64,000 bases of DNA, taken from contig JANQMA010000026.1 of the NCBI GenBank assembly GCA_028280285.1, positions 64,822-128,821 on the forward strand, written 5' to 3'. The notes under the pieces are model-generated. The model was not told where the DNA came from. It was given only the letters and a program-made list of their open reading frames with translations, and did no database searches. Both the position numbers and the translations under genes were made by a program. Below are positions 17,479-64,000 of this stretch, one piece after another (the stretch's first letter is position 1; each line of letters opens with the position of its first letter). Source of the DNA: Candidatus Omnitrophota bacterium. Its GTDB lineage: Bacteria; Omnitrophota; Gorgyraeia; Zapsychrales; Zapsychraceae.

Positions 17479-17507
17479 TATTTTTACATTTTTATAGAGA
17501 GGACATC

Positions 17508-18371: not shown

Positions 18372-18380
18372 ATGGATTTT

Positions 18381-18440: not shown

Positions 18441-18455
18441 CCAGGTACTAAAATT

Positions 18456-25933: not shown

Positions 25934-25998
25934 GCGTCGTTAGTTGTTGGTCATTAGTCATTAGTCATTGGAGGACGAATGACTAAAGACCAGACGCA
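25934..25998. repeat. imperfect palindrome (gcgtcgttagttgttggtcattagtcattagtcatt ... aatgactaaagaccagacgc)
   Basis: It lies in the ispD/ispF intergenic region and contains a gttagttgttgg unit and a tandem tcattag unit. Confidence 0.6.
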
Positions 25999-26508: not shown

Positions 26509-26512
26509 ATGG

Positions 26513-26580
26513 GTCTGTTTATTGTTTAATGTTTAAAGTTTGGGTGATGTAATAAACAATAAACATTAAACTTTAAACGG
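26513..26580. repeat. palindrome of the gttta-unit family (tgtttattgtttaatgtttaaagttt ... aaacaataaacattaaactttaaacgg)
   Basis: It lies in the ispF/cysE intergenic region and belongs to the same family as 55371-55426. Confidence 0.7.
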
Positions 26581-26625
26581 ACTTGGAGTTATTTTATTAA
26601 TATATTTTTTAACAGGTAGGAAATC

Positions 26626-27333
26626 ATGGGATTCATAGGTTTTATTTTTACATTATTTTTAATCACGCTTGCCTTTAGTTTACTGGCGGCTGTCTTTTTT
26701 GCCGAGGAGATTAAATCAACACGGGAAAAAGATCCGGCGGCAGGCGGCTATTTGCAGATTATTCTGCTTTATCCGGGTTTGCATGCGCTCATGGCGCATC
26801 GGATCAATCATCGTTTATGGAAACTAAAATTCCAGTTTTTGGCGCGGCTCTTGTCACAAATAGTCCGTTTTATAACCGGCATTGAAATTCATCCCGGAGC
26901 GCAAATCGGTAAAGGGCTGTTTATCGATCATGGGATGGGTGTTGTGATTGGTGAGACGACTATTGTCGGTGATGATGTGACTCTTTTTCAAGGCGTGACA
27001 CTCGGCGGGACAGGTAAAGAATGCGGCAAAAGGCATCCGACCATCGGCAATAATGTGGTCATCGGAGCCGGGGCTAAAGTGCTTGGCAACATAACGGTTG
27101 GGGATAGTTCTTATATTGGAGCCAATGCGGTTATTTTAAAAGATATTCCTAACAATGCGACGGTGGTTGGTGTGCCGGGGCGTGTGGCCAAACATGAAGG
27201 CAAAAAGGTTGATTCATTGGATCATGTGCACATTGCCGATCCGGTTATGGTGCATATGCGTGATTTGATCAAACGCGTTAAACATTTGGAAAAACACGAA
27301 GAAAACCAAGGCGAAAATGGCGATGGCATTTAA
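26626..27333 (+). CDS. cysE: serine O-acetyltransferase
   Basis: It aligns along its length with the short-form CysE (DPAA...GLHA...[30 protein letters not shown], hexapeptide repeats). It carries an unusual hydrophobic N-terminal extension of about 20 aa. Confidence 0.85.
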
Positions 27334-27948
27334 GGGTAAATTTATTACGTTTGAAGGCTCCGAAGGTTCAGGCAAGAGCACGCAGATGGCATTGCTTAAA
27401 AAATATCTTCAGAAAAGAAAGTGTAAGGTTATTGTTTTGCGTGAGCCCGGTGGCGTTAAGATCAGCGAGACGGTAAGGCGTATTCTTTTGGATACAAAAA
27501 ATAAGGAGATGAATAAAATCTGTGAGACGCTGCTTTACATGGCGGCGCGTGCTCAGCTCGTCGAAGAAAAACTGATTCCGGCCCTTAAAGAAGGTAAGGT
27601 TATTCTTTGTGACCGTTTTTTGGATTCAACCGTTGTTTATCAAGGATACGGCTGCGGGATTGATATTAAGACGGTGCAGTCTATCGGTAAGTTTGCCACG
27701 CAGGCATTGAGCCGGATATGACACTGTTTTTTGATATTGATGTTAAAAAAGGCATGAAGCGTATTCAAAACCGTAAACTGGACCGCATTGAGCAGCGCAC
27801 GCTTAATTATCACAATAAGGTACGCCGTGGTTATTTGGATATGGCACGTAAATATCCCAGGCGGATTAAGGCGATCAAGGTTGATCGATCGATTGATGAG
27901 ATTCATGAGGTTGTTAAAAAATACGTAAATAAAATATTAAAATTGTAG
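27317..27948 (+). pseudogene. tmk: thymidylate kinase interrupted by a -1 frameshift near nt 27708-27715
   Basis: The 27317..27721 ORF carries the P-loop FITFEGSEGSGKST and DRF-DST-YQG. The 27718..27948 ORF in another frame begins with the expected continuation PDMTLFFDIDV...R-DRIE. One base is missing around gagccggat. Confidence 0.7.
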
Positions 27949-28007
27949 GGGCGGCTCGTGAGCCGCCCTAATATGTCGATAAATTAGGGTCGCTCGCGAG
28001 CGACCCG
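27948..28007. repeat. nested GC-rich hairpins (gggcggctc gtg gagccgccc, ctaat...attag, gggtcgctc gc gagcgaccc)
   Basis: Two perfect 9-bp GC stems are joined by a third inverted repeat, in the tmk/holB intergenic region. No U tract follows. Confidence 0.7.
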
Positions 28008-28028
28008 TACAATATTAATATAATTCTT

Positions 28029-29785: not shown

Positions 29786-29796
29786 TTACAAATTAA

Positions 29797-30092
29797 AAAG
29801 TAAAAAGTCAAAAATAAAATGAAAAAATGAAATAAATTTATAAAGTAAAATTAAAATTCGTATTTGGTAGTTAGTAATTGGTAATTGGTTTTCTAAAAAA
29901 TAATAATTTAAAAATGATATATTATTGTGCCAAGCAAAAAATATTAAAACTCTTGAAATCCATTTTCTATTATGAATCCGATTTATAAATTGTTCACCAA
30001 TTACCAAATACCAATTACTAAATACATTTTTTATTTTTTATTTTCTTTCAATTTTTTAATTTTCTCTTTTAATTTTTATTTCACATTTTTGA
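29797..30092. repeat. long AT-rich inverted repeat of the same family as 17296-17478, with a ~110-bp central insert
   Basis: The arm core cgtatttggtagttagtaattggtaattgg matches ccaattaccaaataccaattactaaatac on the other side. The arms carry phased A-tracts. It lies in the yaaT/metG intergenic region. Confidence 0.75.
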
Positions 30093-31606: not shown

Positions 31607-31697
31607 TTAGCGTTTAGCGTATAGCGTTTAGGGAGTGGTTAGTTATTAGTCACTAATCACTTTCTATTCGCTATCCGCTATGCGCTGTACGCTAAAA
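31607..31697. repeat. palindrome of the tagcg-unit family (tagcgtttagcgtatagcgtttaggga ... tcgctatccgctatgcgctgtacgctaaa)
   Basis: It lies in the metG/mtnA intergenic region. Confidence 0.75.
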
Positions 31698-34884: not shown

Positions 34885-34982
34885 AATTAAGCGTATAGGG
34901 TATAGCGTTTAGCGAATAGGTAGTAATTAGTGTTTTAGTCTGATAACTACCTAAACGCTATGCGCCGTACGCTAAACGCTAA
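34885..34982. repeat. palindrome of the tagcg-unit family (aagcgtatagggtatagcgtttagcgaataggtagt ... actacctaaacgctatgcgccgtacgctaaacgct)
   Basis: It lies in the tsaB/alr intergenic region. Confidence 0.75.
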
Positions 34983-34987
34983 ATATT

Positions 34988-36151: not shown

Positions 36152-36157
36152 AATTGG

Positions 36158-36240
36158 TGATCTGTGATCTGTGTTCTGTGATCTGGAAAATAATATCATA
36201 GATTTATTCGGACCACAGACCACTGAACACGGACCACAAT
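36158..36240. repeat. imperfect palindrome (gtgatctgtgatctgtgttctgtgatctgg ... ccacagaccactgaacacggaccacaat)
   Basis: It lies in the alr/chrA intergenic region. Pairing is better with G-U wobble, so it may be an RNA-level structure. Confidence 0.6.
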
Positions 36241-36252
36241 AGGAGCTTTTTA

Positions 36253-37326
36253 ATGAGCAAGTTACTCGAACTCTCAGTCATTTTTCTTAAACTTGGGACA
36301 GTTGCCTTCGGTGGTCCGGTGGCGCATATCGCGATGATGGAAGAGGAGTTTGTCGAAAAACGCAAGTGGCTCACCCGTGATCATTTCCTGGATCTGATTG
36401 GCGCAACCAATTTGATCCCGGGGCCAAACTCGACGGAGATGGCCATGCATTTGGGCTTTGTGCGTGCACGGTTTGCCGGGCTTGTTGTCGCCGGCGTTTC
36501 TTTTATCCTGCCGGCGGTGTGTTTAACAGGGGCGCTTGCGTATCTTTATATTCACTACGGCTATTTGCCGAAGTTTGAAGCGGTCTTTTTAGGGATTCGT
36601 GCGGCGATCCTTGCGCTTATTTTAAGCGCGATCCTCAAACTTGGCAAAAAGGCGGTTAAGAATCGCACACTCGGTGTGATCGGTATTATCGCGCTTGCGC
36701 TTGTATTATACGGAGTGAATGAAGTCGCGGCACTCTTTATTGCCGGGCTACTGGGGACGGTGTGGACCTATTCGAGCGATACGTTTTTTAAACGCGGCTC
36801 GCCTAAGGTGGCACTTGTGCCGCTCTTTTTAGTGTTCCTTAAAATCGGCGCGATTCTTTTTGGCAGCGGGTATGTCTTGATTGCGTATCTACAAGGGGAG
36901 TTGGTCGAGGGCTTGCATTGGTTGAATGAGGCAGCTCTTCTTGATGCTGTGGCGATCGGTCAGATGACACCGGGGCCGGTGCTCTCCACCTCAACGTTTA
37001 TCGGGTATTATTTAAGCGGAGTGGAAGGGGCGATTGTGGCAACGGTAGGGATGTTTCTGCCGGCCTTTTTCTTTGTGGCTGTCACATCACCCTTTATCAG
37101 CAAAATCCGCCGTGTCCCAATCCTTGGGTGTTTTCTTGATTCGGTTAATGTTGCCGCTGTTGGCCTCATGAGCGCGGTCTTGATCCATCTTGTTCAAACC
37201 TCCATCGTCGACGCCAAATCTGCCACCATCTGCGTCCTGGCGGTTGTGTATGTGTATTTTGTGAAGAAAGTTAATGTGTTTTTGTTGGTAGGGGTGAGTG
37301 CTGTGGCAGGGTTTGTATTGTTTTAA
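36253..37326 (+). CDS. chrA: chromate transporter ChrA family (two fused CHR domains)
   Basis: 357 aa, polytopic, with the ChrA motifs (GGPVAHIAMM and LPGPNST) repeated in both halves. Its 3' end is duplicated downstream of a palindromic insertion. Confidence 0.8.
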   Translation: MSKLLELSVIFLKLGTVAFGGPVAHIAMMEEEFVEKRKWLTRDHFLDLIGATNLIPGPNSTEMAMHLGFVRARFAGLVVAGVSFILPAVCLTGALAYLYIHYGYLPKFEAVFLGIRAAILALILSAILKLGKKAVKNRTLGVIGIIALALVLYGVNEVAALFIAGLLGTVWTYSSDTFFKRGSPKVALVPLFLVFLKIGAILFGSGYVLIAYLQGELVEGLHWLNEAALLDAVAIGQMTPGPVLSTSTFIGYYLSGVEGAIVATVGMFLPAFFFVAVTSPFISKIRRVPILGCFLDSVNVAAVGLMSAVLIHLVQTSIVDAKSATICVLAVVYVYFVKKVNVFLLVGVSAVAGFVLF

Positions 37327-37410
37327 ATTTAGCGTCTAGCGGATAGCGGTTAGCGTTTAGGAAGTAATCAGTAACTAGTCGCTATACGCTGTACGCTAAA
37401 CGCTAGTAAG
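37327..37410. mobile_element. tagcg-family palindrome inserted at the chrA 3' end, flanked by a ~57-bp duplication of the gene end (MITE-like)
   Basis: The element (tagcgtctagcggatagcggttagcgtttagga ... gctatacgctgtacgctaaacgcta) separates two copies of gt(t/g)aatgtgtttttgttggtaggggtgagtgct...ttttaa, at 37270-37326 and 37411-37467. Confidence 0.6.
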
Positions 37411-37523
37411 GTGAATGTGTTTTTGTTGGTAGGGGTGAGTGCTTTAGCGGGATTTTTATTATTTTAATTTGGAGAAAAGTATGTTTAGAAGAATCCCGGG
37501 GACACGTACGTAATTAATGAAAG

Positions 37524-37572
37524 GCCTATTCAACTGACGCAGTTGAATGGGTAACGCAGTTGAATGGGTAGG
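37524..37572. repeat. hairpin of the cctattcaactg family, with the right arm tandemly duplicated
   Basis: The sequence is cctattcaactgacgcagttgaatgggtaacgcagttgaatgggtagg. Confidence 0.65.
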
Positions 37573-37586
37573 CATCTAAGAGTAGA

Positions 37587-37620
37587 ATAAAAAAGGGCCA
37601 GGATTGCTCCTGGCCCGACT
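37587..37620 (-). terminator. terminator-like hairpin oriented for the minus strand (A tract on + strand = U tract on - strand)
   Basis: On the plus strand it reads ataaaaaa gggccagg attgctc ctggccc. No annotated minus-strand gene lies upstream of it. Confidence 0.35.
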
Positions 37621-37708
37621 CGTAACTCAAACTTTCTTTTCGCAAGTTACTTTAAATATAAAGGATAATGCAGGATTTTTCAATAACAATCACTAACCGA
37701 GGTTAATC

Positions 37709-38764
37709 ATGAAACATAAATTAACAGCAAAGTATTTTTCGCAGGAGGATTTGCTTAAGTCCGGTTGCCTGGATTTAAAGATGGCGATTAAGGCGGCGGA
37801 AGAGGCCCTGCTTGAGCACAGTGACGGGGAGGTGCTTTTTCCGGATAAAATTGTTCAGATATTTAATCATGACACGCAGGAAAGAATCAATTGTCTGCCG
37901 GCCACATTCTTTAAAGAGAAAATTTGCGGCATGAAATGGGTGTCTGTCTTTCCGCCTAATCCGGCGCGCCATGGCCTGCAAAACCTTTCGGCGGTTATGA
38001 TTTTATCGGAAATTGAAAAAGGGTTTCCGCTGTGTTTTATGGAGGGGACATTATGTTCTAATGTCCGTGTCGGCGCGATGGGGGCGCTGGCGGCCAAACA
38101 TTTGGCCAAAAAGGATCCTAAATCGATCGGCTTTATCGGCAGCGGCGAGCAGGCTAAGATGCATTTGATTGCCATGAAAACAATTTTTTCAACGATTGAG
38201 GAGTGCCGGGTCGCGGCTAAGGAAGATGTGGAAGAAGAGGCATTCATCTATGAAATGAAGGCGATTTTTCCTGATATCACATTTCAAGCCGCGCAAACAG
38301 AATTAGAGCGATCGGTCGATGGGGCGGACATTGTTGTCACCGCCACCAGTGTGCAGGCGCCGCTCCTTAAAGCCGATTGGGTTAAGCCGGGCGCCTTTTA
38401 CAGCCATATCGGCGGATGGGAAGATGAGTATGCCGTTGCCAAACAATCCGATAAAATTGTCTGTGACGACTGGGAAACCGTTAAGCACCGCACACAAACA
38501 TTGAGCCGTATGTATAAGGACGGTGAGCTCAAAGATGATGATATCTATTGTAATTTGATCGATATTGTGCGCGGTGAGAAAAAAGGGCGCGAGTCGGAGG
38601 ATGAGAGGGTTTATTTTAATGCGGTAGGGCTCGCGTATGTGGATGTGGCGATCGCAATCGCAATGTACAACCGTGCTTTAGAGTCCGGGGTTGGACAAGA
38701 TCTAACCATTCAGGACTGCATGATTTTTCAACACGAAGAAATCAAAGACTGGATTCGTTTGTGA
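37709..38764 (+). CDS. ornithine cyclodeaminase / mu-crystallin family protein
   Basis: 351 aa with a Rossmann motif (IGFIGSGEQA) and the OCD/mu-crystallin architecture. Confidence 0.75.
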   Translation: MKHKLTAKYFSQEDLLKSGCLDLKMAIKAAEEALLEHSDGEVLFPDKIVQIFNHDTQERINCLPATFFKEKICGMKWVSVFPPNPARHGLQNLSAVMILSEIEKGFPLCFMEGTLCSNVRVGAMGALAAKHLAKKDPKSIGFIGSGEQAKMHLIAMKTIFSTIEECRVAAKEDVEEEAFIYEMKAIFPDITFQAAQTELERSVDGADIVVTATSVQAPLLKADWVKPGAFYSHIGGWEDEYAVAKQSDKIVCDDWETVKHRTQTLSRMYKDGELKDDDIYCNLIDIVRGEKKGRESEDERVYFNAVGLAYVDVAIAIAMYNRALESGVGQDLTIQDCMIFQHEEIKDWIRL

Positions 38765-38771
38765 ACACAAA

Positions 38772-38798
38772 GCCTATTCAACTGCGGCAGTTGAATAG
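38772..38798. repeat. perfect hairpin of the cctattcaactg family, immediately after the OCD stop
   Basis: The hairpin is cctattcaactg cg gcagttgaatagg. Confidence 0.7.
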
Positions 38799-38824
38799 GT
38801 AGTATTTATATTGAGGAGAAAATT

Positions 38825-39352
38825 ATGCCATCAACAAAGTTGGTCGCAGGGGCGGCGTTTCCTGAGATAAAAGTAAAAAGTTTAGAAGGTGAGGACATGG
38901 AGTTCGGCAAACCAAGGGGCGATGCGGATTGGCGGATGGCCATTGTGTATCGCGGACGGCATTGTCCTTTATGCACAAAGTTCCTTAATAAGCTTGACGG
39001 GTATATCAAGCGGCTTTTGGATGTGGGCATTGCGTTGGATATTGTCTCCGGTGATAGCAAAGAGCAGCTTGAGGAGCATTTGACGCGTCTTGAGGTGAGC
39101 TTCCCTATATACTATGGATTAACCGTTGAGCAAATGAAAATATTGGGTCTTTATATTTCTCATCCACGATCGGAAAAGGAAACAGATCATCCCTTTGCCG
39201 AACCGGGTATGTTTATTCTCAATGAGAAGGGCACATTGCAAGCCGTTGATATTTCTAACAATCCTTGGGCCCGTCCTGATCTGGAGGTTATGGTCTCAGG
39301 GCTGGAATGGATCCGTAGTAATAATTACCCTATTCGTGGGACGTATGAGTAA
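38825..39352 (+). CDS. thioredoxin-fold protein (peroxiredoxin/redoxin-like, CPLC motif)
   Basis: 175 aa carrying RGRHCPLCTKF in a thioredoxin-like context. Confidence 0.45.
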   Translation: MPSTKLVAGAAFPEIKVKSLEGEDMEFGKPRGDADWRMAIVYRGRHCPLCTKFLNKLDGYIKRLLDVGIALDIVSGDSKEQLEEHLTRLEVSFPIYYGLTVEQMKILGLYISHPRSEKETDHPFAEPGMFILNEKGTLQAVDISNNPWARPDLEVMVSGLEWIRSNNYPIRGTYE

Positions 39353-39385
39353 AAATTTCGGGGACATAATACATAATTATTAACT
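39353..39385 (+). repeat. 30-nt 3'-flank repeat aaaatttcgRggacataatacataaNtatt (copy 1)
   Basis: It immediately follows the thioredoxin-fold gene stop. The second copy is at 40751-40785, after the lipoprotein stop. Confidence 0.6.
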
Positions 39386-39557
39386 AAGCCTGCTCCGTTC
39401 AATACTGCGTTCTACAAAATTTAAATGTTTGCATGTTTAAATTTTGCAGTACTCGTGTTGAACTCCGCAGGTAAATTCGTTGTAACAACTTACGTTGCTC
39501 CCGCTGCATTATTACGAATGCTGGCAGCGGGATCTGCCGTAAGGTGAACACTCATTT
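39386..39557 (+). repeat. ~100-nt repeat (copy 1) plus a variable hairpin, ending in cattt immediately before the gmhB ATG
   Basis: aagcctgctccgttcaatactgcgttctacaaaatttaaatgtttgcatgtttaaattttgcagtactcgtgttgaactccgcaggtaaattcgttgtaa is near-identical to 42795-42894. It is followed by the hairpin cccgctgc...gcagcggg. Confidence 0.7.
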
Positions 39558-40103
39558 ATGAAGCGAGCAATTTTTCTAGACAGAGACGGAACAATCAACG
39601 AGGATGTGGGGTATTTTTGCACACGGGATAAGTGGGAATATATTCCAGGATCGATTGAAGCACTTAAAATTCTTCAGAAAGATTATGTTCTTTTTATCGT
39701 GACCAATCAATCGGGTGTGGCCCGGGGATTTTTTACAGAAGAAGAGCTTATTAAGTTTAATGGTGAAGTTGAACAGATGCTACGCAAAGAAGGCATCATT
39801 ATTCAAAAAACATATTATTGCCCGCATATGGGGGACGAAGAGCATTGCAATTGCCATAAACCGTCGCGCTTTTTTTTAGACCAAGCCAAGAAAGAGTTTA
39901 ATATCGATCTTGAAAACTCTTTTGTCATTGGCGATCATCCGCATGATGTGGAGTTTGGCCAGCAAGTCGGCGCGACGTCGATCTATGTGTTAACAGGGCA
40001 TGGTGAGAAACACAAAGACGAGCTCACCGACATTGATCCACCGGACTTCATCGCCAAAAATTTGTACGAAGCAACAATGTGGATAAATAATCAAAGGAGT
40101 TAA
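39558..40103 (+). CDS. gmhB: D-glycero-D-manno-heptose 1,7-bisphosphate phosphatase-like HAD-IIIA hydrolase
   Basis: It has the HAD motif I (FLDRDGTIN), a Zn-binding insert (CPHMGDEEHCNCHKP) and GDHPHD. Confidence 0.7.
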   Translation: MKRAIFLDRDGTINEDVGYFCTRDKWEYIPGSIEALKILQKDYVLFIVTNQSGVARGFFTEEELIKFNGEVEQMLRKEGIIIQKTYYCPHMGDEEHCNCHKPSRFFLDQAKKEFNIDLENSFVIGDHPHDVEFGQQVGATSIYVLTGHGEKHKDELTDIDPPDFIAKNLYEATMWINNQRS

Positions 40104-40105
40104 TT

Positions 40106-40750
40106 ATGTTATCGTTTTCTAAAACAAATAGTTTTTTTGCAAGCACATTATTTATCTTGCTAATTCTTTTAACCGCTTGTGGCACGCAGGCATCCAGCGA
40201 TGTCAATTTATCGGCATCCGCTCTTCAAAAAGGAGTGGGGCTTGTTAAGTGGGGCGCTGATCCAGAAAAGTTGGATAAACTACAAGCGATTCAAAAAGAT
40301 GTTGTATTGAACTTCGGCGGTGTTAATCCGTTTGATGCCTTTGAGCAACAATCCGACATTAAGGTATATCAACATCCTGATGCGCCGATTCAATTAGGTA
40401 AACAAGTTATTGAAGAAGTAAAGTATTACGCACGGGACGGTAAAGGGATTGTGGCCGCACGCATTATTTTGGCGGATAAACCTCACAAGGCGGATCCGTT
40501 TCTTTTAAAGGGGCTGGATAAGGAGACGATCGCAAATTTAGTTTTAAGGGGGTATCCTTTTTATGAACTGATTAATAAATCTGCGACACTGCTTAATGAA
40601 AATTTTAACTCACCGACAGGTTATCCTTGGTTTCTATGGGGTGTTGGCGGCACTAAAGAGAAGCCGAACGTAACCATCATGGCTGGTAATTGGCGCGGTT
40701 CGGAAAGTTTGGATAATAAATATGTGCTTCATATTTACAAGGTAGAATAA
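40106..40750 (+). CDS. hypothetical lipoprotein
   Basis: It has a signal peptide with a lipobox (LLTAC) and no other recognisable motif. Confidence 0.45.
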   Translation: MLSFSKTNSFFASTLFILLILLTACGTQASSDVNLSASALQKGVGLVKWGADPEKLDKLQAIQKDVVLNFGGVNPFDAFEQQSDIKVYQHPDAPIQLGKQVIEEVKYYARDGKGIVAARIILADKPHKADPFLLKGLDKETIANLVLRGYPFYELINKSATLLNENFNSPTGYPWFLWGVGGTKEKPNVTIMAGNWRGSESLDNKYVLHIYKVE

Positions 40751-40785
40751 AATTTCGAGGACATAATACATAACTATTTTGAAAT
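40751..40785 (+). repeat. 30-nt 3'-flank repeat aaaatttcgRggacataatacataaNtatt (copy 2)
   Basis: It immediately follows the lipoprotein stop and lies upstream of the SDR gene. Confidence 0.6.
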
Positions 40786-40811
40786 AGAAAATTTAATTGG
40801 AGGAGAGAACA

Positions 40812-41624
40812 ATGGCACAAACAATTTTTATTACAGGTTCATCAACCGGGATTGGCCGCGCAACAGCGAAACTGTTTCACCAAAATGGCTGGAATGTGGT
40901 GGCCACCATGCGCAGCCCTGAAAAAGAAGAAGAACTTAAGGCGCTGGATAATGTGCTGGTCACACAATTAGATGTGTTGGATCAAGCTTCCATTGACGCT
41001 GCGGTTAAAGTAGCCGTTGATCAATTCGGCCAAATTGATGTATTGCTTAACAATGCCGGTTACGGCATCATGGGTCCGATGGAAACACTGGATGATGCGC
41101 TCATCCGTCGGCAATTTGACGTGAATTATTTTGGCGTCATCGATTGCATGAAGGCTGTTTTGCCGCATATGCGTCAAAGAAAAAAGGGAATGATCATTAA
41201 TGTTTCTTCGATCGGCGGACTTGTGGCGTACCCTTATTTGACGATTTATAATTCAACCAAGTTTGCGCTTGAGTGTTTGACCGAAGGGGCGCAATACGAA
41301 TTAAATCCACTTGGGATTAAACTGAAATTGATTGAACCGGGTGCGATTAAAACGCAGTTTGGCGGTTCGATGCAGCTTAGTGAGACAGGCGCCATTGAAG
41401 ATTACAAACCAGGTTTTGGGACCATGGTCAGTAAACTGGAAGGCATGCTGGATAATGCCTCATCGCCTGAACTTGTTGCCGATGTGATTTGGCAGGCGGC
41501 CACCGATGGCACCGATCAGGTGCGTTATCTGGCCGGTCAAGATGCGGTAGATAACTGGGCTACGCGCAGACAAATGGAAGATGCGGCATTTAAAAATATG
41601 TTTGTCGAGCAGTTGGGGCTTTGA
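40812..41624 (+). CDS. short-chain dehydrogenase/reductase (SDR)
   Basis: It has TGSSTGIGRA, NNAG and the S...YNSTK catalytic tetrad. The start was moved to the ATG behind a GGAGGA RBS. Confidence 0.8.
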   Translation: MAQTIFITGSSTGIGRATAKLFHQNGWNVVATMRSPEKEEELKALDNVLVTQLDVLDQASIDAAVKVAVDQFGQIDVLLNNAGYGIMGPMETLDDALIRRQFDVNYFGVIDCMKAVLPHMRQRKKGMIINVSSIGGLVAYPYLTIYNSTKFALECLTEGAQYELNPLGIKLKLIEPGAIKTQFGGSMQLSETGAIEDYKPGFGTMVSKLEGMLDNASSPELVADVIWQAATDGTDQVRYLAGQDAVDNWATRRQMEDAAFKNMFVEQLGL

Positions 41625-41630
41625 TACATA

Positions 41631-42224
41631 GTGTCAGATCCAAGAAAAATAGTGAAAGCAACACCAAATGATTGTGAAGCATTGGCGAAAGCGATGAGCC
41701 GTGCATTTATCAATGAGCCGTATTGCCGGTGGCTTTTTCCGTCGGATAAAGACTGGATTAATCGATCTGAACAATTTTTTACGTATGATCTTAAACATGG
41801 TCTGCGTTATGGGAATCTTTCTAAAACCGAAGATAATGGTGCGGCGATGCAATGGGCGTTTGTAGGTCAAAACGAAGAGAAAAATAACTGGAGCGATTTT
41901 GAATATTTGTGGCATACCTTTTTGCAGTTTGGTCTAAGGACGCGTGATATATATCGCGTCTTTGATTTGTTTAAAAAACATATGCCTGACGCACCGTTTG
42001 TTTACATAGAATTTCTCGGCGTTGATCCTGACAAACAGGGTCGGGGCTATGGTAAGGCGATGATCGAGTACGCGATCGCAGAATCAACAAAAAACAATTG
42101 TCCGGTTTATCTGGAAACATGCGACGAAAAAACGGTTCGGTTTTATGAAAAGCTTGGTTTTTCTGTCAGTAATCAATTTGATTTTGCGCCGGGGGCAAAA
42201 GCCTTTTGTATGATTCGCAGATAA
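41631..42224 (+). CDS. GNAT family N-acetyltransferase
   Basis: GTG start. It has an acetyl-CoA-binding motif (QGRGYGKAMIEYA) and a GNAT fold. Confidence 0.65.
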   Translation: MSDPRKIVKATPNDCEALAKAMSRAFINEPYCRWLFPSDKDWINRSEQFFTYDLKHGLRYGNLSKTEDNGAAMQWAFVGQNEEKNNWSDFEYLWHTFLQFGLRTRDIYRVFDLFKKHMPDAPFVYIEFLGVDPDKQGRGYGKAMIEYAIAESTKNNCPVYLETCDEKTVRFYEKLGFSVSNQFDFAPGAKAFCMIRR

Positions 42225-42314
42225 CGTTGTGCGTTCATTTAATTTTTCTTGGAAAAAAGTCCGCGCATGATATACTCCTAGTAAAGAAGATTTTGTCCAT
42301 TAAAGGGAACAGTT

Positions 42315-42515
42315 ATGATTAAAATACGTGATATAGAAAAAGCGGTGTCAAGTCTACCCAAAAAAGATTTTATGAAATTTCGTGCATGGTTTCATAAATT
42401 CGATGCGCTTAAATGGGATGAGCAGTTGAAAAAAGACGTCCACAGCGGTAAGCTGGACAAGCTTGCTGAAAGTGCGCTCAAAGATTTCAAAGATGGTAAA
42501 TGCAAAGAATTATGA
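42315..42515 (+). CDS. putative addiction-module antitoxin (small partner of RelE/ParE toxin)
   Basis: 66 aa with a WDEQL...GKLDKLAESALKDFKDGK-type C-terminus. It overlaps the downstream toxin gene by 16 nt. Confidence 0.55.
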   Translation: MIKIRDIEKAVSSLPKKDFMKFRAWFHKFDALKWDEQLKKDVHSGKLDKLAESALKDFKDGKCKEL

Positions 42516-42766
42516 AGCATTTAACCAGTCCTTCTTTTTGGAAATGTTACGAACGCCTGCCTTCATCTATTCGGAAAATAGCTGACAAAAATTTTACTTT
42601 ACTTAAGAAGAACGCAAAACACCCTTCACTTTATTTTAAGAAGATCGGCAAGTATCGTTCAGTTAGAATTGGCACCCGTCATCGAGCACTTGCGGTTGAG
42701 AATGATAAGGATTTACTCTGGTTCTGGATTGGCTCGCATGCGGATTACGATAAGCTCGTTAAATAA
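42500..42766 (+). CDS. RelE/ParE family toxin
   Basis: 88 aa. The KYRSVRIGTRHRALAVENDKDLLWFWIGSHADYDKL motif matches the RelE/ParE fold signature (R...R..Y-less ParE type). Confidence 0.7.
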   Translation: MQRIMKHLTSPSFWKCYERLPSSIRKIADKNFTLLKKNAKHPSLYFKKIGKYRSVRIGTRHRALAVENDKDLLWFWIGSHADYDKLVK

Positions 42767-42794
42767 TAGAGGGCGGCACCCCGTTTAATTAAAA

Positions 42795-42939
42795 AGCCTG
42801 CTCCGTTCAATACTGCGTTCTACAAAATTTAAATGTTTGCACGTTTAAATTTTGTAGTACTCGTGTTGAACTCCGCAGGTAAATTCATTGTAAGACTTAT
42901 GTTCAGCGCTGTGCGCTTCCATAAGTCTAACATTCATTT
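42795..42939 (+). repeat. ~100-nt repeat (copy 2) plus a variable hairpin, ending in cattt immediately before the methyltransferase ATG
   Basis: The ~100-nt core matches 39386-39485 with about 3 mismatches. It is followed by the hairpin agacttatg...cataagtct. Confidence 0.7.
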
Positions 42940-43572
42940 ATGAAATCTACTTCAGAAAAATTTTGGAATAAGACGGCCCGCAAGTACGCCAAGGATCCGA
43001 TTAAGGATATGGCGGGCTATGAAAAGACACTCGCAGATACGAAAAAATATCTAGGCGCGGATAAGTGTGTACTTGAATTCGGCTGCGGGACCGGGATGAC
43101 GGCCCTTAAACTTGCGACGTACACAAAGGAATATACAGCGACGGACATCTCCACGGAGATGATTACCATTGCCAACGAAAGAAAGGCTGCCGAAAAGGCA
43201 GATAATCTGCATTTTGTTAAAGGCACATTAGATGATGCCTCGCTTAAAAAAGGCGCCTATGATGTAATTTTAGGGTATAATATTATTCACTTACTTGATG
43301 ATACAAACGCAGCGCTCAAACGCATCCATGCGCTGCTTAAGCCGGGGGGAGTTTTTATTTCCAAAACACCCTGCCTGCGCGAGAAAAGTTGGTTCTGGCC
43401 GATCGCCGCGCCAATTGTCGCCGCCGTCCTCGGCGTTGGTACGATCAAAAGTTTTACAGTCGCTCAATTAGAAGAAATTATAATATCCCAAGGTTTTCAT
43501 ATCATCGACCGTCACCTCTACTCATCCACAATGTCTAGACCTTTTTGGGTTGCGAAGAAATCCTCTATTTGA
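42940..43572 (+). CDS. class I SAM-dependent methyltransferase
   Basis: It has motif I (VLEFGCGTGMTA) and the post-I acidic residue (TATDIS). Confidence 0.75.
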   Translation: MKSTSEKFWNKTARKYAKDPIKDMAGYEKTLADTKKYLGADKCVLEFGCGTGMTALKLATYTKEYTATDISTEMITIANERKAAEKADNLHFVKGTLDDASLKKGAYDVILGYNIIHLLDDTNAALKRIHALLKPGGVFISKTPCLREKSWFWPIAAPIVAAVLGVGTIKSFTVAQLEEIIISQGFHIIDRHLYSSTMSRPFWVAKKSSI

Positions 43573-43573
43573 G

Positions 43574-43600
43574 CCTATTCAACTGCCGCACTTGAATTGG
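43574..43600. repeat. hairpin of the cctattcaactg family, immediately after the methyltransferase stop
   Basis: The hairpin is cctattcaactgccgcacttgaattgg, with 2 mismatches. Confidence 0.65.
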
Positions 43601-43626
43601 CATCTTTATTCTGCTAGGATAGGTCC

Positions 43627-44919
43627 ATGCAATTTTACACGGATCTGCATTTGCATTCCCATTATTCCCGCGCGACGAGTAAGAACTTAAATCTGGAACA
43701 TCTTAATCTCTGGGGACAGCTCAAAGGCATTAACATTGTCGGCACCGGAGATTTTACTCATCCGGCCTGGTTTAAAGAGCTTCAGGAAAAGCTCGAGCCT
43801 GCCGAAGAGGGATTATTCAAACTTAAAAAAGAGTATCAAGAAATCGCCAAAAAAGAACTCCCCGCAGCGTGCAAGGGTGAGCTACGCTTTATGCTCACCG
43901 TTGAGATTTCTAATATTTATAAACGGCTTGATCGTGTGCGCAAGGTCCATAATGTGGTCTTTGCGCCGAGCTTTGAGGCGGCTGGAAAAATTAGAGACAG
44001 GTTGGATAAGATCGGCAATCTCAATGCCGATGGACGGCCGATTCTGGGACTCGACTCCCGCGATCTTTTGGAAATCGTACTTGAATCCGATCCGCTGAGC
44101 TATCTTGTGCCGGCGCATATCTGGACGCCGTGGTTCTCGGCCATGGGATCCAAAAGCGGATTTGATCGGATGACTGATTGCTTTGGGGATTTAAGCGATC
44201 ATATCTTTGCGGTTGAGACAGGGCTCTCATCCGATCCGACCATGAATTGGCGCTTAAGCCAACTGGATCCGTATGTGTTGGTCTCCAATGGGGACGCGCA
44301 TTCACCGCAAAAGCTTGCACGCGAGGCAACGATTTTTGACACCGAGATGTCCTATCCGGCGATTTATGATGCGCTGCGTAATCCGCAAACTAATAAAGGA
44401 CTCATTGGCACGGTCGAATTTTTTCCGGAAGAAGGCAAGTATCACTATGACGGCTGTCGTAATTGTCAGATGCGTATGCATCCAAAGGAAACGGTCGAGC
44501 ATAGCGGTGTTTGCCCGTCATGTGGTAAGCCGGTGACTGTCGGTGTTATGGCGCGTGTGGAAGAACTCGCCGATCATCCGGAAGGGCGCAAGGCGCCGAA
44601 CTGGCGGCCGTTTTTTAGTTTGATTCCATTGCCGGAGATTATCGGGGATTGTGTCGGCGTTGGTCCGAACAGTAAGACCGTGCAAAATCAATTCAGGACA
44701 TTATTATCGACGCTCGGTAATGAAATGTTTATTCTGCGTGATTGCCCACTTGATCACATTCAAAAAGCCGGTGGAGCACGTTTGGCGCAAGCGATTGAAC
44801 GGATGCGAAAAGGAGACGTTAACATTGCCGCTGGTTATGACGGGGAATACGGAAAGATTAAAATATTTTCTGCTGACGATGTTGTGCCTGAAGAAACAGA
44901 TCAGTTGACTTTATTTTGA
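43627..44919 (+). CDS. PHP-family metal-dependent phosphoesterase with C-terminal Zn ribbon (COG1379-like)
   Basis: It has N-terminal H-x-H (DLHLHSHYSRATS), further PHP His/Asp motifs (NGDAHSPQ) and a C4 Zn ribbon (CRNCQ...CPSCGKP). Confidence 0.7.
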   Translation: MQFYTDLHLHSHYSRATSKNLNLEHLNLWGQLKGINIVGTGDFTHPAWFKELQEKLEPAEEGLFKLKKEYQEIAKKELPAACKGELRFMLTVEISNIYKRLDRVRKVHNVVFAPSFEAAGKIRDRLDKIGNLNADGRPILGLDSRDLLEIVLESDPLSYLVPAHIWTPWFSAMGSKSGFDRMTDCFGDLSDHIFAVETGLSSDPTMNWRLSQLDPYVLVSNGDAHSPQKLAREATIFDTEMSYPAIYDALRNPQTNKGLIGTVEFFPEEGKYHYDGCRNCQMRMHPKETVEHSGVCPSCGKPVTVGVMARVEELADHPEGRKAPNWRPFFSLIPLPEIIGDCVGVGPNSKTVQNQFRTLLSTLGNEMFILRDCPLDHIQKAGGARLAQAIERMRKGDVNIAAGYDGEYGKIKIFSADDVVPEETDQLTLF

Positions 44920-44925
44920 AAATAA

Positions 44926-44960
44926 AAAAGGCCAGGAATAATAATTCCCGGCCTTTTTCT
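44926..44960 (+). terminator. rho-independent terminator after the PHP gene
   Basis: A ggccaggaa..ttcccggcc hairpin followed by TTTTT, 7 nt after the stop codon. Confidence 0.6.
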
Positions 44961-45009
44961 ATAGCTTAATGGCTCCCTGACTAAGATCTAATTTAAATAT
45001 ATAATAAGA

Positions 45010-46533
45010 ATGAACTCTGAGCAACAAAAATCTGTTCTTCACCGCGGCAGTCACTTACTCATCGTCGCCGGGCCCGGGACGGGCAAGACACACACCTTAA
45101 CTCACCGGATTGCCGCATTAGTTAAAGAGATTGCTGACAATAAACAAATCATTGCCATCACTTTCACTAATAAAGCGGCCGATGAAATGCGTACGCGCCT
45201 TGCTAAACTCATCAACGAAGATTTAAGTGAATGCATTGTCTGCGGAACCTTTCATCAGTTTTGCCTGCGGTTATTAAAAGAATATCAAGTGCACACATCA
45301 TTGCCCGACAATTTTCGTGTGGCATCCCCCGAAGAAATCCAAACATGCATTAAACAATCCTGGCCCGAGTTAACGAATAAAGAGAGAAAGGACCGGTTAA
45401 ACGCAATTTCCAATTGGAAATCATCGGTATTCACAGCAGAAGAACCTGAGACCGTCACCGAGTACAATCAATTATTAGCCAAAGAAGGTTTTCTTGATTT
45501 TGATGATGTGCTTTTACAGGCCTATTATCTTTTGCGGAATAATAAAGATGTTTTAGACAAAGTCCAATCCCAATATCCTACCATTTTTGTCGACGAGTAT
45601 CAGGATATTAATGGCATACAACATGCTTTGCTGAAAACTTTAGTTGGACCTAATAGTCATATAACAGCGATAGGGGATCCTAATCAAGCGATCTATGGCT
45701 TTCGCGGATCTGATGTGCGTTTTTTTCATAGTTTCGCCGAAGACTTTGCCGGGGCAACAGTTTTTTATTTATCTGATAATTACCGCTCATCACAAAATTT
45801 ATTGACTGCTTCAGGTCAAATGATTGCGCAAACCGCAAGTGCGCATGTTCCGGCCTTAACCGCACAACTTTATCAAGAAGGGCGTTTAACGATTTATCAG
45901 GCGCCAACAGATAAGGCCGAAGCCGAGTATGTTGTTCATCAAACCGAGAAGATGGTTGGCGGCACATCGATGTTTTCGCATGATTCAGGCCGCGTGCATA
46001 ATTTCGCTGAGTGCGAAATGAGTTTTGGGGATGTGGCCGTGCTTTACCGGCTTAACAGCCAGCGCCATGCGCTTATCAAAGCCTTTGACCGGATGGGTAT
46101 TCCCTATCAGGTATGCGCGAAGGCGAATATCGAAGAGGACGGCCTATCCGATGATGTCTGCCCGGAAAGGACAGAAGATGTTGATCTTGATCATGAGCGT
46201 GTGAGCCTCATGACTTTACATGCGTCCAAAGGACTTGAGTTTCCGGTTGTGTTTATTGTGGGCTGTGAAGAAAATTTGCTGCCGCTTGATATAGCCGGAC
46301 TGACATCGAGCAAAGAAGAAGAAAGGCGTTTGCTTTATGTCGGTATGACACGCGCTAAATCCCTGCTGTATCTTTGCCACAGCCAGAAGCGCATGCTCTT
46401 TGGTCAATCTCACCAGTCGAAACCATCAGAATTTCTGCAGGACATCGAGGAAGAACTTAAAAGTTACGATGTCGCTAAGCAAAAACCCAAACGCCCCGCC
46501 AAAAAAGAAGATTTCCAGATGACATTGTTTTAA
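45010..46533 (+). CDS. minimal UvrD/PcrA-like SF1 helicase (507 aa, reduced 2B domain)
   Basis: The SF1 helicase motifs are present: I (AGPGTGKT), Ia (TFTNKAADEM), II (DEYQD), III (GDPNQAIYGFRG), IV (YRSS), V (LHASKGLEFPVVFIV) and VI (YVGMTRAK). It is about 200 aa shorter than canonical UvrD. Confidence 0.85.
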   Translation: MNSEQQKSVLHRGSHLLIVAGPGTGKTHTLTHRIAALVKEIADNKQIIAITFTNKAADEMRTRLAKLINEDLSECIVCGTFHQFCLRLLKEYQVHTSLPDNFRVASPEEIQTCIKQSWPELTNKERKDRLNAISNWKSSVFTAEEPETVTEYNQLLAKEGFLDFDDVLLQAYYLLRNNKDVLDKVQSQYPTIFVDEYQDINGIQHALLKTLVGPNSHITAIGDPNQAIYGFRGSDVRFFHSFAEDFAGATVFYLSDNYRSSQNLLTASGQMIAQTASAHVPALTAQLYQEGRLTIYQAPTDKAEAEYVVHQTEKMVGGTSMFSHDSGRVHNFAECEMSFGDVAVLYRLNSQRHALIKAFDRMGIPYQVCAKANIEEDGLSDDVCPERTEDVDLDHERVSLMTLHASKGLEFPVVFIVGCEENLLPLDIAGLTSSKEEERRLLYVGMTRAKSLLYLCHSQKRMLFGQSHQSKPSEFLQDIEEELKSYDVAKQKPKRPAKKEDFQMTLF

Positions 46534-46760
46534 TGGAATGCCCACTTCGGCTGGGTATATTTCATTTTAGCAAGCAGCCTCGTGGGATAACTTCGCTGTA
46601 ACAGTTTACGTTCGTCGCGGTAATAATAATTTACAAAATCTGCTTTCGTAAATCACATTTTTTGCTTCGCAAAATAATGTGATTGTCTCCAGCAGTAAAT
46701 TCGCAGACGTTTCACTATAGTTTAGCTTCGCTGGCGCTTGCTAAACTATCTGCTCATTTA
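46534..46760 (+). repeat. degenerate relative of the 39386/42795 element (gtaaattcgcagacg...hairpin...ctgctcattt)
   Basis: It shares the gtaaattc...gtaacagtttacgtt...cattt layout and contains the hairpin tagtttagc...gctaaacta. It lies between the helicase and lptG. Confidence 0.45.
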
Positions 46761-47873
46761 TCAATTAGCAAAGTCAAACTCTATGACCAGAAGTCCTATC
46801 CCCGTAAAGATAATCGGGGCGGTCCAGGCAGAAAGCGTGGGGGGCAGCACCCCGCCTTTGCCGAGGGCAAGCGCAACGGCATTGGCGACATAATAGAGAA
46901 AACCGATGGCCATGGCAATACCAAGCGAAGTAAAGGTGGTGCCTTTGCGGTTTTTCATCATCAAAGCAAACGGCAGGCCTAACAGCACAATGACAAAATT
47001 ACCGAACGGATAAGCAATCTTTTGGTGATAATCAACACGCAGTTTGTTAAGCGCTTTGTTAGCCCCGCTGTCGGCGAAGCGTTCAATATATTGTCCCAAC
47101 TCACGGATGTTCATCGCGCGCACATTAAGACGCTGTTTAACAAAATCACGCGGGGTCTCTTTAATATCCATGAGCTTTTCATTATATACCTTAATTTTAA
47201 GAGGACTTCTTACCCCCTTTTCGCCGTACGTTGTAATCTGCGCGCGGTAAAACTTCCAGGCGATGCCGGTCCAGCGGCCTTCGAGCGCGATGATCTTTTG
47301 CACTAAATTTTGATTGTTATCGTATTCGAGAATAGTGATACCGGAGAGTTTATTTTCTTTGGCCGCGAATGTGTCGATGTAATACAACCTGTTTCTCAGT
47401 CCGTAAAAGGTGAGGTTTTTGATAATCTTTTCTTTTTTGTATTTGCGGTCGACTTCAAGGATCATGTATTGATTTTCGATTTCTTTTTGTTCGGCGGTGG
47501 CATAAGGAACAAATTTTTCATTCACCCAGAAAATAACGACGGACAGAAAAAGCGCGAAAATTAGTGCCGGCCTTACGATTTTCCAAAAGTTCATACCGCT
47601 TGCGCGCATAACAGTGATTTCATTGTGATTGCTTAAAGCGCTGTACGTTAAAAGTACAGAGATAAGACAGGCAATTGATGATGTCTGCGAGACAATATCA
47701 GGCATGGCGTAAAGATAATACTGGATGATAATCTCCAGAGGAATTTTACGGTCGATGAATTCATCCAAATGGCCCGTCGAATCAAAGAGAATAAAGAGCC
47801 CCGTAAAAATGACAAGCGTTGCGATAAACGTGGTCAAGATGGATGTTGATATGTAGCGGTCTAAGAGGCGCAT
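46761..47873 (-). CDS. lptG: LPS export permease LptG (YjgP/YjgQ family)
   Basis: It has 6 TM segments and a periplasmic beta-jellyroll insert. It is the second of two tandem, overlapping YjgP/YjgQ genes. Confidence 0.7.
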   Translation of the reverse strand: MRLLDRYISTSILTTFIATLVIFTGLFILFDSTGHLDEFIDRKIPLEIIIQYYLYAMPDIVSQTSSIACLISVLLTYSALSNHNEITVMRASGMNFWKIVRPALIFALFLSVVIFWVNEKFVPYATAEQKEIENQYMILEVDRKYKKEKIIKNLTFYGLRNRLYYIDTFAAKENKLSGITILEYDNNQNLVQKIIALEGRWTGIAWKFYRAQITTYGEKGVRSPLKIKVYNEKLMDIKETPRDFVKQRLNVRAMNIRELGQYIERFADSGANKALNKLRVDYHQKIAYPFGNFVIVLLGLPFALMMKNRKGTTFTSLGIAMAIGFLYYVANAVALALGKGGVLPPTLSAWTAPIIFTGIGLLVIEFDFAN

Positions 47874-50186: not shown

Positions 50187-50187
50187 T

Positions 50188-50244
50188 AATTAAGGGGACA
50201 CAATACTTAATTAAAAAATAATTAAGTATTGTGTCCCCTTAATT
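50188..50244 (+). terminator. perfect 25-bp-stem hairpin after the small secreted ORF
   Basis: The hairpin is aattaaggggacacaatacttaatt aaaaaat aattaagtattgtgtccccttaatt, with no clear U tract. Confidence 0.45.
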
Positions 50245-50267
50245 ACGAAAAATAGAAAGAAGGACGC

Positions 50268-50822: not shown

Positions 50823-50837
50823 CGAATAAACAAACAG

Positions 50838-50898
50838 TTGCTCGTTGCTAGATGCTAGTCGCTCGTGGATGCTAGCAACCAGCAACAAGCAACCAGCA
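50838..50898. repeat. palindrome of the gatgctag-unit family (gttgctcgttgctagatgctagtcgc ... gatgctagcaaccagcaacaagcaaccagcaac)
   Basis: It lies in the pyrE/maf intergenic region. Confidence 0.65.
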
Positions 50899-50903
50899 AC
50901 TAA

Positions 50904-52662: not shown

Positions 52663-52708
52663 CCGCAACAAGCACCGGGTGCCTGGGCACCCGGTGCTTG
52701 TTGCGGTT
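52661..52708 (+). terminator. perfect 23-bp-stem hairpin (terminator-like, no U tract) after the DUF192 gene
   Basis: The hairpin is aaccgcaacaagcaccgggtgcc tgg gcacccggtgcttgttgcggtt. Confidence 0.45.
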
Positions 52709-53219: not shown

Positions 53220-53221
53220 AA

Positions 53222-53292
53222 TAAAAAAGCCGTAGGCCATAAGCTGTAAGCCATATGATATGGCTTACAGCTTATGGCCTACTGCTTTTTTG
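53222..53292. terminator. bidirectional rho-independent terminator between convergent genes
   Basis: An ~29-bp-stem palindrome (agccgtaggccataagctgtaagccatat g atatggcttacagcttatggcctactgct) is flanked by an A tract and a T tract. Confidence 0.65.
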
Positions 53293-63625: not shown

Positions 63626-63690
63626 ATAGTGCCAGGTACTAATTATTAAAGTTATTTGTTTTTCAAGGGCCTGTGTGGTATTTTAAACAT

Positions 63691-63990
63691 ATGATTAGAA
63701 AATCAGACATATTTGCAACAATCGAAAAGAACTCTGAAGAAATCAAGCTTTTAGGAGTCAAGCGTCTGGCTGTTTTTGGCTCATTTTCCCGCTACACACA
63801 AACCAAAAAAAGTGATATTGATATTTTGGTTGAATTTAAACGTGGAAAAAAGACTTTTGATAATTTTATGGATTTAAAGCATCTTCTTCAAAAAAAGTTA
63901 AAGCGCAGAGTTGATCTTGTCACTAAATCTGCGTTAAAACCACAGTTAAGATCTGCTATTGAAAAAGACCTTTCCTATGCGGGACTCTAA
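63691..63990 (+). CDS. MNT-type nucleotidyltransferase (antitoxin of a HepT/MNT pair)
   Basis: It has the minimal nucleotidyltransferase motif (LAVFGSFSR...SDIDILVEF). Its stop overlaps an ATG (taATGtctatcta) that starts a + strand ORF running off the window, presumably HepT. Confidence 0.65.
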   Translation: MIRKSDIFATIEKNSEEIKLLGVKRLAVFGSFSRYTQTKKSDIDILVEFKRGKKTFDNFMDLKHLLQKKLKRRVDLVTKSALKPQLRSAIEKDLSYAGL

Positions 63991-64000
63991 TGTCTATCTA

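Follow-up and report, generated by a model that had tools for sequence, protein, structure and literature searches.

Two copies of a paired-hairpin spacer repeat in a variable island of a Candidatus Omnitrophota chromosome

The DNA considered here is a 64-kb chromosome segment of an uncultured Candidatus Omnitrophota bacterium (the window, in whose positions all coordinates are given), which carries housekeeping genes such as bamA, lysS, a clpB-type gene, metG and pyruvate dehydrogenase genes, and in which the named top matches of the methionyl-tRNA synthetase (MetRS) are all from Omnitrophota, with 70-80% identity. Between alr and lptG lies a 10.6-kb variable island containing chrA, genes of the ornithine cyclodeaminase (OCD) and AhpC families, a 3.4-kb block of six open reading frames (ORFs), a methyltransferase gene and genes for a TIGR00375-family protein and a UvrD-like helicase. 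The subject of this study is a repeat found in two spacers of the island, one on each side of the 3.4-kb block. There are two good copies of it, designated a and b, and two decayed half-copies, all of them within the one island.

The two copies of the repeat and their hairpins

The full unit is a spacer of 150-175 bases that consists of two abutting hairpins, H1 and H2, and ends exactly at the start codon of the next gene. The island, the block and the hairpins are as follows.

36152-46760, + strand: variable island between alr and lptG, 10.6 kb, defined by synteny and not present in relative L015/L016
39558-42766, + strand: 3.4-kb block encoding a GmhB-like HAD-IIIA protein, a lipoprotein, a short-chain dehydrogenase/reductase (SDR), a GNAT protein, a 66-aa ORF and a ParE-like toxin (ORFs and protein searches)
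39388-39472, + strand: H1 of copy a, an 85-nt imperfect palindrome, CCTGC..GTTCAAT..CAAAATTTAAA loop TTTAAATTTTG..GTTGAAC..GCAGG (folding, pair table, inverted repeat I24)
39473-39560, + strand: H2 of copy a, made up of the linker TAAATTCGTTGTAA, a variable hairpin, the tail AACACTCATTT and the ATG of the GmhB-like gene (minimum free energy (MFE) -27 kcal/mol, z -2.6)
42796-42880, + strand: H1 of copy b (folding, blastn, alignment, pair table)
42881-42942, + strand: H2 of copy b, with linker and tail as in a, a shorter and different inner hairpin and the methyltransferase ATG (MFE -21.6 kcal/mol, z -6.5; inverted repeat I21)

Copies a (39386-39496) and b (42794-42903) are 94.6% identical over 111 nt (blastn, E 4.7e-45), with three mismatches within the first 100 aligned columns and with identical stretches of 48 and 31 nt, and the same repeat was recovered by repeat finding (family D5); such a similarity is far beyond chance. 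The two copies differ by a 26-nt indel. Outside the 111-nt core the homology is weaker and extends up to both ATGs: beyond the variable segment it returns as AACAYTCATTT and runs into ATGAA, with which both the GmhB-like gene (39558) and the methyltransferase gene (42940) begin. The left borders of the homology lie at 39377 and 42785 and its right border is the ATG. The DNA upstream of the two copies is unrelated, and H1 begins 35 nt (a) and 29 nt (b) past the upstream stop codons. An earlier interpretation made from the letters of the DNA alone (the sequence-only reading) had described a repeat of about 100 nt with about three mismatches, each copy being followed by a different hairpin and running without a good Shine-Dalgarno (SD) sequence to the ATG of gmhB or of the methyltransferase gene, and this description is confirmed, the difference between the hairpins being borne out by the folding of both spacers. 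Contigs of an independent assembly of the same sample (Logan, k=31) end inside both repeats, and the order AhpC-repeat-block-repeat-methyltransferase therefore depends on how the deposited assembly resolved the repeat.

Compared with shuffled sequences, the whole spacers have folding z values of -4.25 (a) and -8.38 (b). H1, which is 97% identical between the copies, contains one bulged T and spacers that are mostly paired, and up to column 100 of the alignment (A2) copy b differs from copy a by a G.U pair that has become G-C, an A.C mismatch that has become A-U and one position of the linker. H2 spans the linker TAAATTC to the tail TCATTTA and has an interior that is unlike in the two copies. 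It closes in both on the AUUUAU of ...CAUUUAUG, through a helix, GUAAAU/AUUUAU, that takes in the A and the U of the AUG and that is weak, comprising just six A/U and G.U pairs. On the a/b alignment there are 51 pairs, 98% of them paired, and double compensatory changes are found at three (columns 94-166, 102-160 and 108-154), namely a G-C to A-U exchange where the linker pairs with the tail, plus two changes within the outer stem of H2. The remaining stem substitutions convert one G.U to G-C and two mismatches to pairs, and no pair is broken. By our own estimate, nine substitutions falling at random on 102 stem positions would change both sides of a pair about 0.36 times, against the three cases observed. 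The covariation check of the hairpins that the sequence-only reading had called for thus gives three double compensatory pairs and none broken; its shuffle control is considered below. It seems, then, that H1 and H2 keep their structure, whether through selection or because quasi-palindromes undergo templated correction.

Relatives of the palindrome, start codons and promoter sites

The decayed and the apparent short relatives of the repeat in the island, and the D10 module that accompanies some of them, are as follows.

46575-46665 (about), + strand: c1, a decayed 3' half, CTCGTGGGATAACTTCGCTGTAACAGTTTACGTT ... CGTAAATCACATTTT, with its folding lost (alignment A1; nhmmer E 0.08; fold z +0.26)
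46690-46761 (about), + strand: c2, a second decayed 3' half, CTCCAGCAGTAAATTCG, hairpin, CTGCTCATTTAT (alignment A1; fold z -2.8)
37521-37570, + strand: D7-1, the short palindrome GCCTATTCAACTGACGCAGTTGAATGGGT with a partial tandem duplicate, preceded by the D10-like motif GGGGACACGTACGTAATTA (repeat and pattern searches)
38769-38801, + strand: D7-2, a short palindrome 7 nt past the stop codon of the OCD-family gene, terminator-like (repeat search; terminator scan)
43570-43602, + strand: D7-3, a short palindrome that begins at the methyltransferase stop codon (repeat search)
39353-39385, + strand: D10 module AAATTTCGGGGACATAATACATAATTATT, past the AhpC-family stop codon and before H1 in copy a (repeat search)

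Repeat, pattern and profile searches of the window found no additional copy of the repeat. At 46534, where a degenerate third copy had been proposed, there is no full copy, and what survives of that proposal is the tandem pair of decayed 3' halves c1 and c2, the profile search giving E 0.08 at 46586-46620. The pair lies between the convergent UvrD-like gene and lptG, which means that no + strand gene follows it, and c2 adjoins the minus-strand stop codon of lptG at the right edge of the island.

The short palindrome of 29-33 nt, AAGCCTATTCAACTGCGGCAGTTGAATAGGTA / GCCTATTCAAC-TGNNGCA-GTTGAATAGGT, occurs in the window only at 37524, 38772 and 43573, and the base of H1 (AAGCCT..TTCAA..CTGCG / GCAG..TTGAA..AGGTA) agrees with it. 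The gapped pattern AGCCT..TTCAA..CTGC is expected 0.005 times per window, a figure that applies to a pattern defined after the sequences were seen. To judge from this agreement, H1 appears to be an expanded version of the short D7 palindrome. The D10 module (GGGGACAYRATACWTAAYTA) stands 5' of H1 in copy a and a related version stands 5' of the short palindrome at 37498, and the combination of D10-like motif and palindrome at 37498-37553 mirrors that of D10 and H1 at 39360-39472; D10 recurs at 40750-40778 and again at 50187-50245, where it forms a perfect palindrome. The shared base and the association with D10 place the a/b repeat, as its long form, in a modular family of palindromes local to this region, whose known members, two long and three short copies, are spread over about 6 kb (37.5-43.6 kb).

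Beyond the window the searches were negative. The exact pattern of the H1 3' end gave a single match in GTDB genomes and a single one in JGI metagenomes, each a chance match in unrelated sequence, while H1 and D7 were not found in viral contigs, blastn of the repeat against plasmids and phages gave nothing, and the repeat is missing from the loci of relatives. Rfam yielded no match at gathering thresholds and only chance-level ones at E up to 5. A 50-aa ORF on the minus strand of copy a had, among 1.8 billion representatives, one match, to an unrelated sequence. Upstream of a methyltransferase homologue with 75% identity are AGGAGA and a different hairpin, and a second homologue (64%) is preceded by a 58-nt spacer without a match to the repeat; methyltransferase homologues in L009 and L005 do not have the element. 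The best relatives of the AhpC-family protein, 63-68% identical, include few named ones, from other phyla, and are useless for synteny. A context of cyanobacterial STRR/HIP1 repeats was set aside on account of the taxon, Omnitrophota.

The ATGs at which the two copies end are true starts, given that the HAD motif DRDGT is at residue 9 of the GmhB-like protein and that the methyltransferase homologue with 75% identity has its start at the corresponding position. SD-less starts right after hairpins are common in this genome and are not special to the a/b repeat. The sequence-only reading had suggested that the repeat might supply a promoter and/or the translation initiation region of the gene behind it. 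The latter stands, trivially, as the homology reaches the ATG and H2 has both A and U of the start codon in pairs, while the former is not supported, as neither copy contains a sigma-70-like site (at least 9/12 matches with 16-18 nt spacing) and the upstream flanks are unrelated. The best candidate found by eye, TTGAAC-18-TGTAAC/TGTAAG, is without A2 and T6 of the -10 hexamer. ECF and sigma-54 promoters were also considered and rejected, the spacing being wrong or the motif being present in one copy only. Perfect TTGACA-17-TATAAT promoters (12/12) are present elsewhere in the window, at 6069-6097 and 13242-13270, upstream of bamA and lysS. A scan for intrinsic terminators did not report H1, the tail of which is UAAAUUCGUUG; it did report D7-2.

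Two further observations concern promoters and terminators in the window at large. From 13.2 to 46.5 kb the genes are all on one strand and promoter-like sites are few. On the minus strand (37683-37588), in the spacer upstream of the OCD-family gene, a promoter-like TTGAAA-17-TATATT (37683) is combined with a strong intrinsic terminator, GGGCCAGGAGCAATCCTGGCCC + TTTTTT (37612-37588), and the two may delimit a candidate small RNA (sRNA) of about 60 nt, for which Rfam gave only sub-threshold matches to terminator-bearing sRNA families.

The variable island and the hairpin-filled spacers

The extent of the island follows from the loci of relatives. In L015 and L016 nothing intervenes between alr and the convergent lptG, beyond which are lptF, genes for 242-aa and 102-aa proteins, a phosphoribosyltransferase gene, maf-M48 and DUF192, in the order that also flanks the window segment, and it is this adjacency of alr and lptG that identifies 36152-46760 as a variable island; in L011 and L012, alr is followed by chrA and then by different genes. 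The sequence-only reading had taken the 3.4-kb segment between the copies to be accessory and had listed its genes, and both points are sustained: the six ORFs are assigned as given above, and the accessory region is larger than the interval first proposed. The HAD-IIIA/GmhB-like protein scores below the equivalog cut-off, and the lipoprotein has 214 aa and an LLTAC lipobox. The island genes show no sign of foreign origin in base composition or in codon usage. The window contains no recombinase, transposase or integrase, and the island has no tRNA gene. The 111-nt direct repeats could mediate RecA-dependent loss of the 3.4-kb block. The whole palindrome family lies inside the island.

Hairpins are not peculiar to the island. 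Among the spacers of at least 50 nt in the window, 23 of 31 fold with z < -3, compared with none of 31 coding controls. Hairpin-bearing spacers include 1714-1790, 17285-17490, 18372-18450, 25934-25997, 26511-26586, 29786-30070, 31607-31695, 34886-34984, 36157-36237, 50187-50245, 50836-50901, 52663-52706 and 53221-53292. Many of the hairpin arms are tandem units of about 7 nt (TAGCGTT/AACGCTA, GTGATCT, TTGGTAA), many of the hairpins start no more than about 13 nt past a stop codon, some finish 2-5 nt before an SD-less ATG, and other hairpin families in the window are also multi-copy. At the same junctions, L011 (MetRS 84% identical) has hairpins of unrelated sequence, and in L012 (80%) and L015 (76%) the genes overlap or are packed tightly instead. 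It looks as if hairpins had invaded the spacers of this particular lineage.

One of the spacer structures, at 27945-28010, is an inverted doublet of GTAG-headed, G+C-rich palindromes (GTAGGGGCGG..CCGCCCTA-ATATGTCGATAAAT-TAGGGTCGC..GCGACCCGTAC) that resembles a doublet of repetitive extragenic palindromes (REPs), or REPIN. It shares an exact 21-mer with L011 17108-17173, which is a non-homologous locus, and this match suggests that a genuinely mobile REP family may exist in the lineage; the 21-mer had no match in viral contigs. A different kind of duplication is seen in chrA, whose last 63 nt (37267-37329, KVNVFLLVGVSAVAGFVLF*) are duplicated at 37408-37470 with 86% identity, across an 80-nt hairpin of tandem units. 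It seems that the insertion of this hairpin brought with it a long duplication of the chrA 3' end.

Other genes of the window also deserve mention. The stretch 43627-46533 encodes a TIGR00375/MJ0043_C-family protein (430 aa) and a UvrD-like helicase that matches the PADLOC GajB models (E 6e-88), separated by a bidirectional terminator of canonical form and by a promoter-like site (44977). No GajA is found beside the GajB-like helicase, and the pair may be a DNA-repair or defence module of the island. At the right end of the window (63673-64000), and in L008 (2087-2705), a Logan contig that overhangs the window slightly, a nucleotidyltransferase/HepT-like toxin-antitoxin pair directly follows the PMT-family glycosyltransferase gene. 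The thymidylate kinase gene (27317-27960) is frameshifted near 27715, frame 1 stopping at 27721 and the C-terminal half lying in another frame, colinear with the intact L011 protein, and the gene is either affected by an assembly error or a pseudogene.

Readings of the repeat and likeness to known systems

The reading that we favor, and to which we give about an even chance, is that the repeat is a composite intercistronic stem-loop element, of the kind represented by REPs and bacterial interspersed mosaic elements (REP/BIME) or by enterobacterial repetitive intergenic consensus (ERIC) sequences, that was duplicated inside the variable island. It looks like a local representative of these familiar repeats, and neither promoter-like nor part of a new mobile system. 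The anatomy of the two copies, their folding, the substitutions that preserve structure, the absence of a promoter consensus, the island and the wealth of hairpins in the genome are observed, and the role at the level of RNA and the origin by duplication are inferred. The element would be transcribed within a polycistronic mRNA. H1 would behave as the other gene-end hairpins of the genome may, as a barrier at the 3' end, as a partial terminator or as a site of processing, and H2 would be the structured, SD-less initiation region of the downstream gene. Copies a and b would most likely have arisen by duplication of a spacer or by recombination during rearrangement of the island. If this is right, the repeat is ordinary, one more intergenic stem-loop family that happens to be caught as a recent duplication. 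It is nonetheless useful as a marker that delimits modules of the 10.6-kb alr-lptG island, and a and b make a clean natural pair for studying translation from an SD-less start codon at the foot of a hairpin. The more unusual observation is the genome-wide filling of spacers with hairpins, which close relatives do not have at the same junctions.

Several points weigh against a stem-loop element of this type. The unit is contiguous with the downstream start and not with the upstream stop, a position that suits a 5' leader no less than a gene-end element at the 3' side. The good copies known from the 64-kb window number only two, and the confinement of the palindrome family to the island hints at a link with the island's construction. 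Folding energies are about equal on the two strands and do not distinguish hairpins in RNA from hairpins in DNA, such that a DNA hairpin or a DNA-bound site is possible. The shuffle control for covariation is weak with two sequences (57 of 500), and templated mutation in quasi-palindromes could give compensatory changes without selection.

One rival reading is a dedicated cis-regulatory leader, in which H2, with or without H1, masks the start codon in response to temperature, a protein or an sRNA, and through which the GmhB-like operon and the methyltransferase gene are co-regulated. This we think unlikely. It would account for the AUG at the foot of H2 in both copies, for the absence of an SD sequence from both genes, for a homology that reaches the ATG and for the conservation of TAAATTC and TCATTTA as mutually pairing segments, with one G-C to A-U covariation there and two more in the outer stem of H2. 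It does not sit well with the lack of an Rfam family, with nearest methyltransferase homologues that are without the element, or with c1 and c2, which have no gene behind them; the closing helix is no longer than six pairs (A/U and G.U), starts that are structured and SD-less are frequent in this genome, and the 97% identity of H1 has the look of recent duplication rather than of ancient conservation. A leader peptide coupled to the downstream gene is extremely improbable. It would be encoded on the + strand by an ORF that starts at an ATG in the H1 loop (39425-39547, 40 codons, in a; 42833-42943, 36 codons, in b), and this frame is open in both copies, its TGA in b overlapping the methyltransferase ATG (ATGA). 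In copy a, by contrast, the stop lies 13 nt before the ATG, the frames differ after the 26-nt indel and give unrelated C-terminal parts, each of the three a/b differences within the part in common changes the amino acid, there is no SD sequence and the start codon is within a hairpin loop; moreover, an open frame of such length is not unusual by chance and no related protein was found for the minus-strand ORF of the same DNA. The small ORF in the H1 loop was judged to be non-coding from its non-synonymous differences and diverging frames.

A different set of explanations treats the repeat as mobile DNA. It could be a non-autonomous element resembling a miniature inverted-repeat transposable element (cf. 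Correia, ERIC), with H1 providing the terminal inverted repeats and the copies arising from independent insertions or as a composite around the 3.4-kb block, a reading that we consider quite unlikely. The arms of the H1 palindrome can indeed serve as inverted repeats, a and b are 95% identical, the other hairpin families of the window are dispersed and short-read contigs end at the repeat, although two identical copies suffice to break a k=31 assembly. Set against this, no target-site duplication flanks the homology at either border (left, 39377/42785; right, the ATG), the homology goes about 90 nt beyond H1 to the ATG, the window has no transposase, all copies are within 7.4 kb, and the genome, metagenome, viral, plasmid and phage collections contain no real match. 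An IS200/IS605-type miniature element was rejected separately, as H2 differs in every copy and there is no conserved hairpin for a transposase to bind. Very unlikely, in our view, is an attC-like or CALIN-like cassette site, that is, palindromes that mark cassette borders in the alr-lptG island and a recombinase that is encoded elsewhere. All three D7 copies, a, b, c1 and c2 are inside the island, with c2 at its right edge; a and b are 3.4 kb apart; the genes are co-oriented and cassette-like (toxin-antitoxin pair, GNAT, SDR, methyltransferase); GTTCAAT ... GTTGAAC in H1 and ATTCAAC ... GTTGAAT in D7 resemble RYYYAAC/GTTRRRY boxes; and a layout R''-5 nt-GTTCTAC ... G(C/T)AGTAC-4 nt-R' is possible for H1. 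The window, however, encodes neither an integrase nor another recombinase, the a/b homology runs on for about 95 nt past the putative crossover box (R') to the ATG, and the a-b 'cassette' would comprise six genes. D7, with 7 nt between its boxes, is too short, and H1 has one bulged base and mostly paired spacers where attC has an unpaired central spacer and 2-3 extrahelical bases. A GTTRRRY box is expected by chance in about half of such hairpin sets, and hairpins separate housekeeping genes throughout the genome too. Highly improbable, finally, is the idea that a cassette-shuffling system not yet described assembles the alr-lptG island in this lineage and uses the palindromes as its junction or recombination sites, much as integrons use attC, with a different site architecture, a recombinase elsewhere and spacer hairpins that are actively propagated.

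These readings can be set beside the systems that they invoke. In attC/CALIN arrays, hairpin sites likewise lie between co-oriented accessory genes of a variable locus with a copy spacing below 4 kb, and the genes here include a toxin-antitoxin pair and a GNAT gene. Of the boxes, R' (GTTGAAC) fits GTTRRRY and R'' (GTTCAAT) misses the last base of RYYYAAC, a result to be read against a chance box in about half of such sets. The 67 nt of H1 from box to box is the right length for attC (57-141 nt), but the attC pattern of bulges and spacers is missing; an integron cassette usually has one promoterless ORF and a similarity confined to the site, whereas here there are six ORFs and a homology that extends to the ATG. 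RNA thermometers and other start-masking leaders share with the repeat a weak, A/U-rich helix that closes on the start codon and compensatory changes in the stems. They differ from it in that no SD sequence is involved here, that there is no conservation upstream of the nearest methyltransferase homologues and that gene-less relics exist.

Closer in build are ERIC sequences (also termed intergenic repeat units, IRU) and Correia elements (NEMIS), which are likewise imperfect palindromes of about 100-150 nt that form long hairpins and which are co-transcribed with flanking genes, as the repeat would be. Both the processing and the stability of mRNA are affected by them, and in some cases so is downstream gene expression. 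They are present in tens to hundreds of dispersed copies, which is not seen here within 64 kb, and Correia elements have TA target duplications and defined inverted-repeat ends, neither of which is seen here. Stem-loop sequence families in general have been treated by Cozzuto et al. (2008, PMC2267715), and searches of Rfam, plasmids and phages revealed no sequence similarity between the repeat and the known families. The REP/BIME elements of Enterobacteria and Pseudomonas are likewise imperfect palindromes in extragenic spacers, often right after a stop codon, and are likewise mosaics with short motifs, here D10, palindrome and linker. REPs are thought to act on mRNA 3' stability, on termination and on translation (PMC3479197, PMC12306157). 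A REP has 20-40 nt, against the 85 nt of H1, and the related short palindrome here has 29-33 nt; H1 and D7 have no GTAG head and the window has no RAYT-type (Y1) gene. In contrast to REP/BIME, the unit described here continues into a second hairpin, and this hairpin bears the start codon of the next gene.

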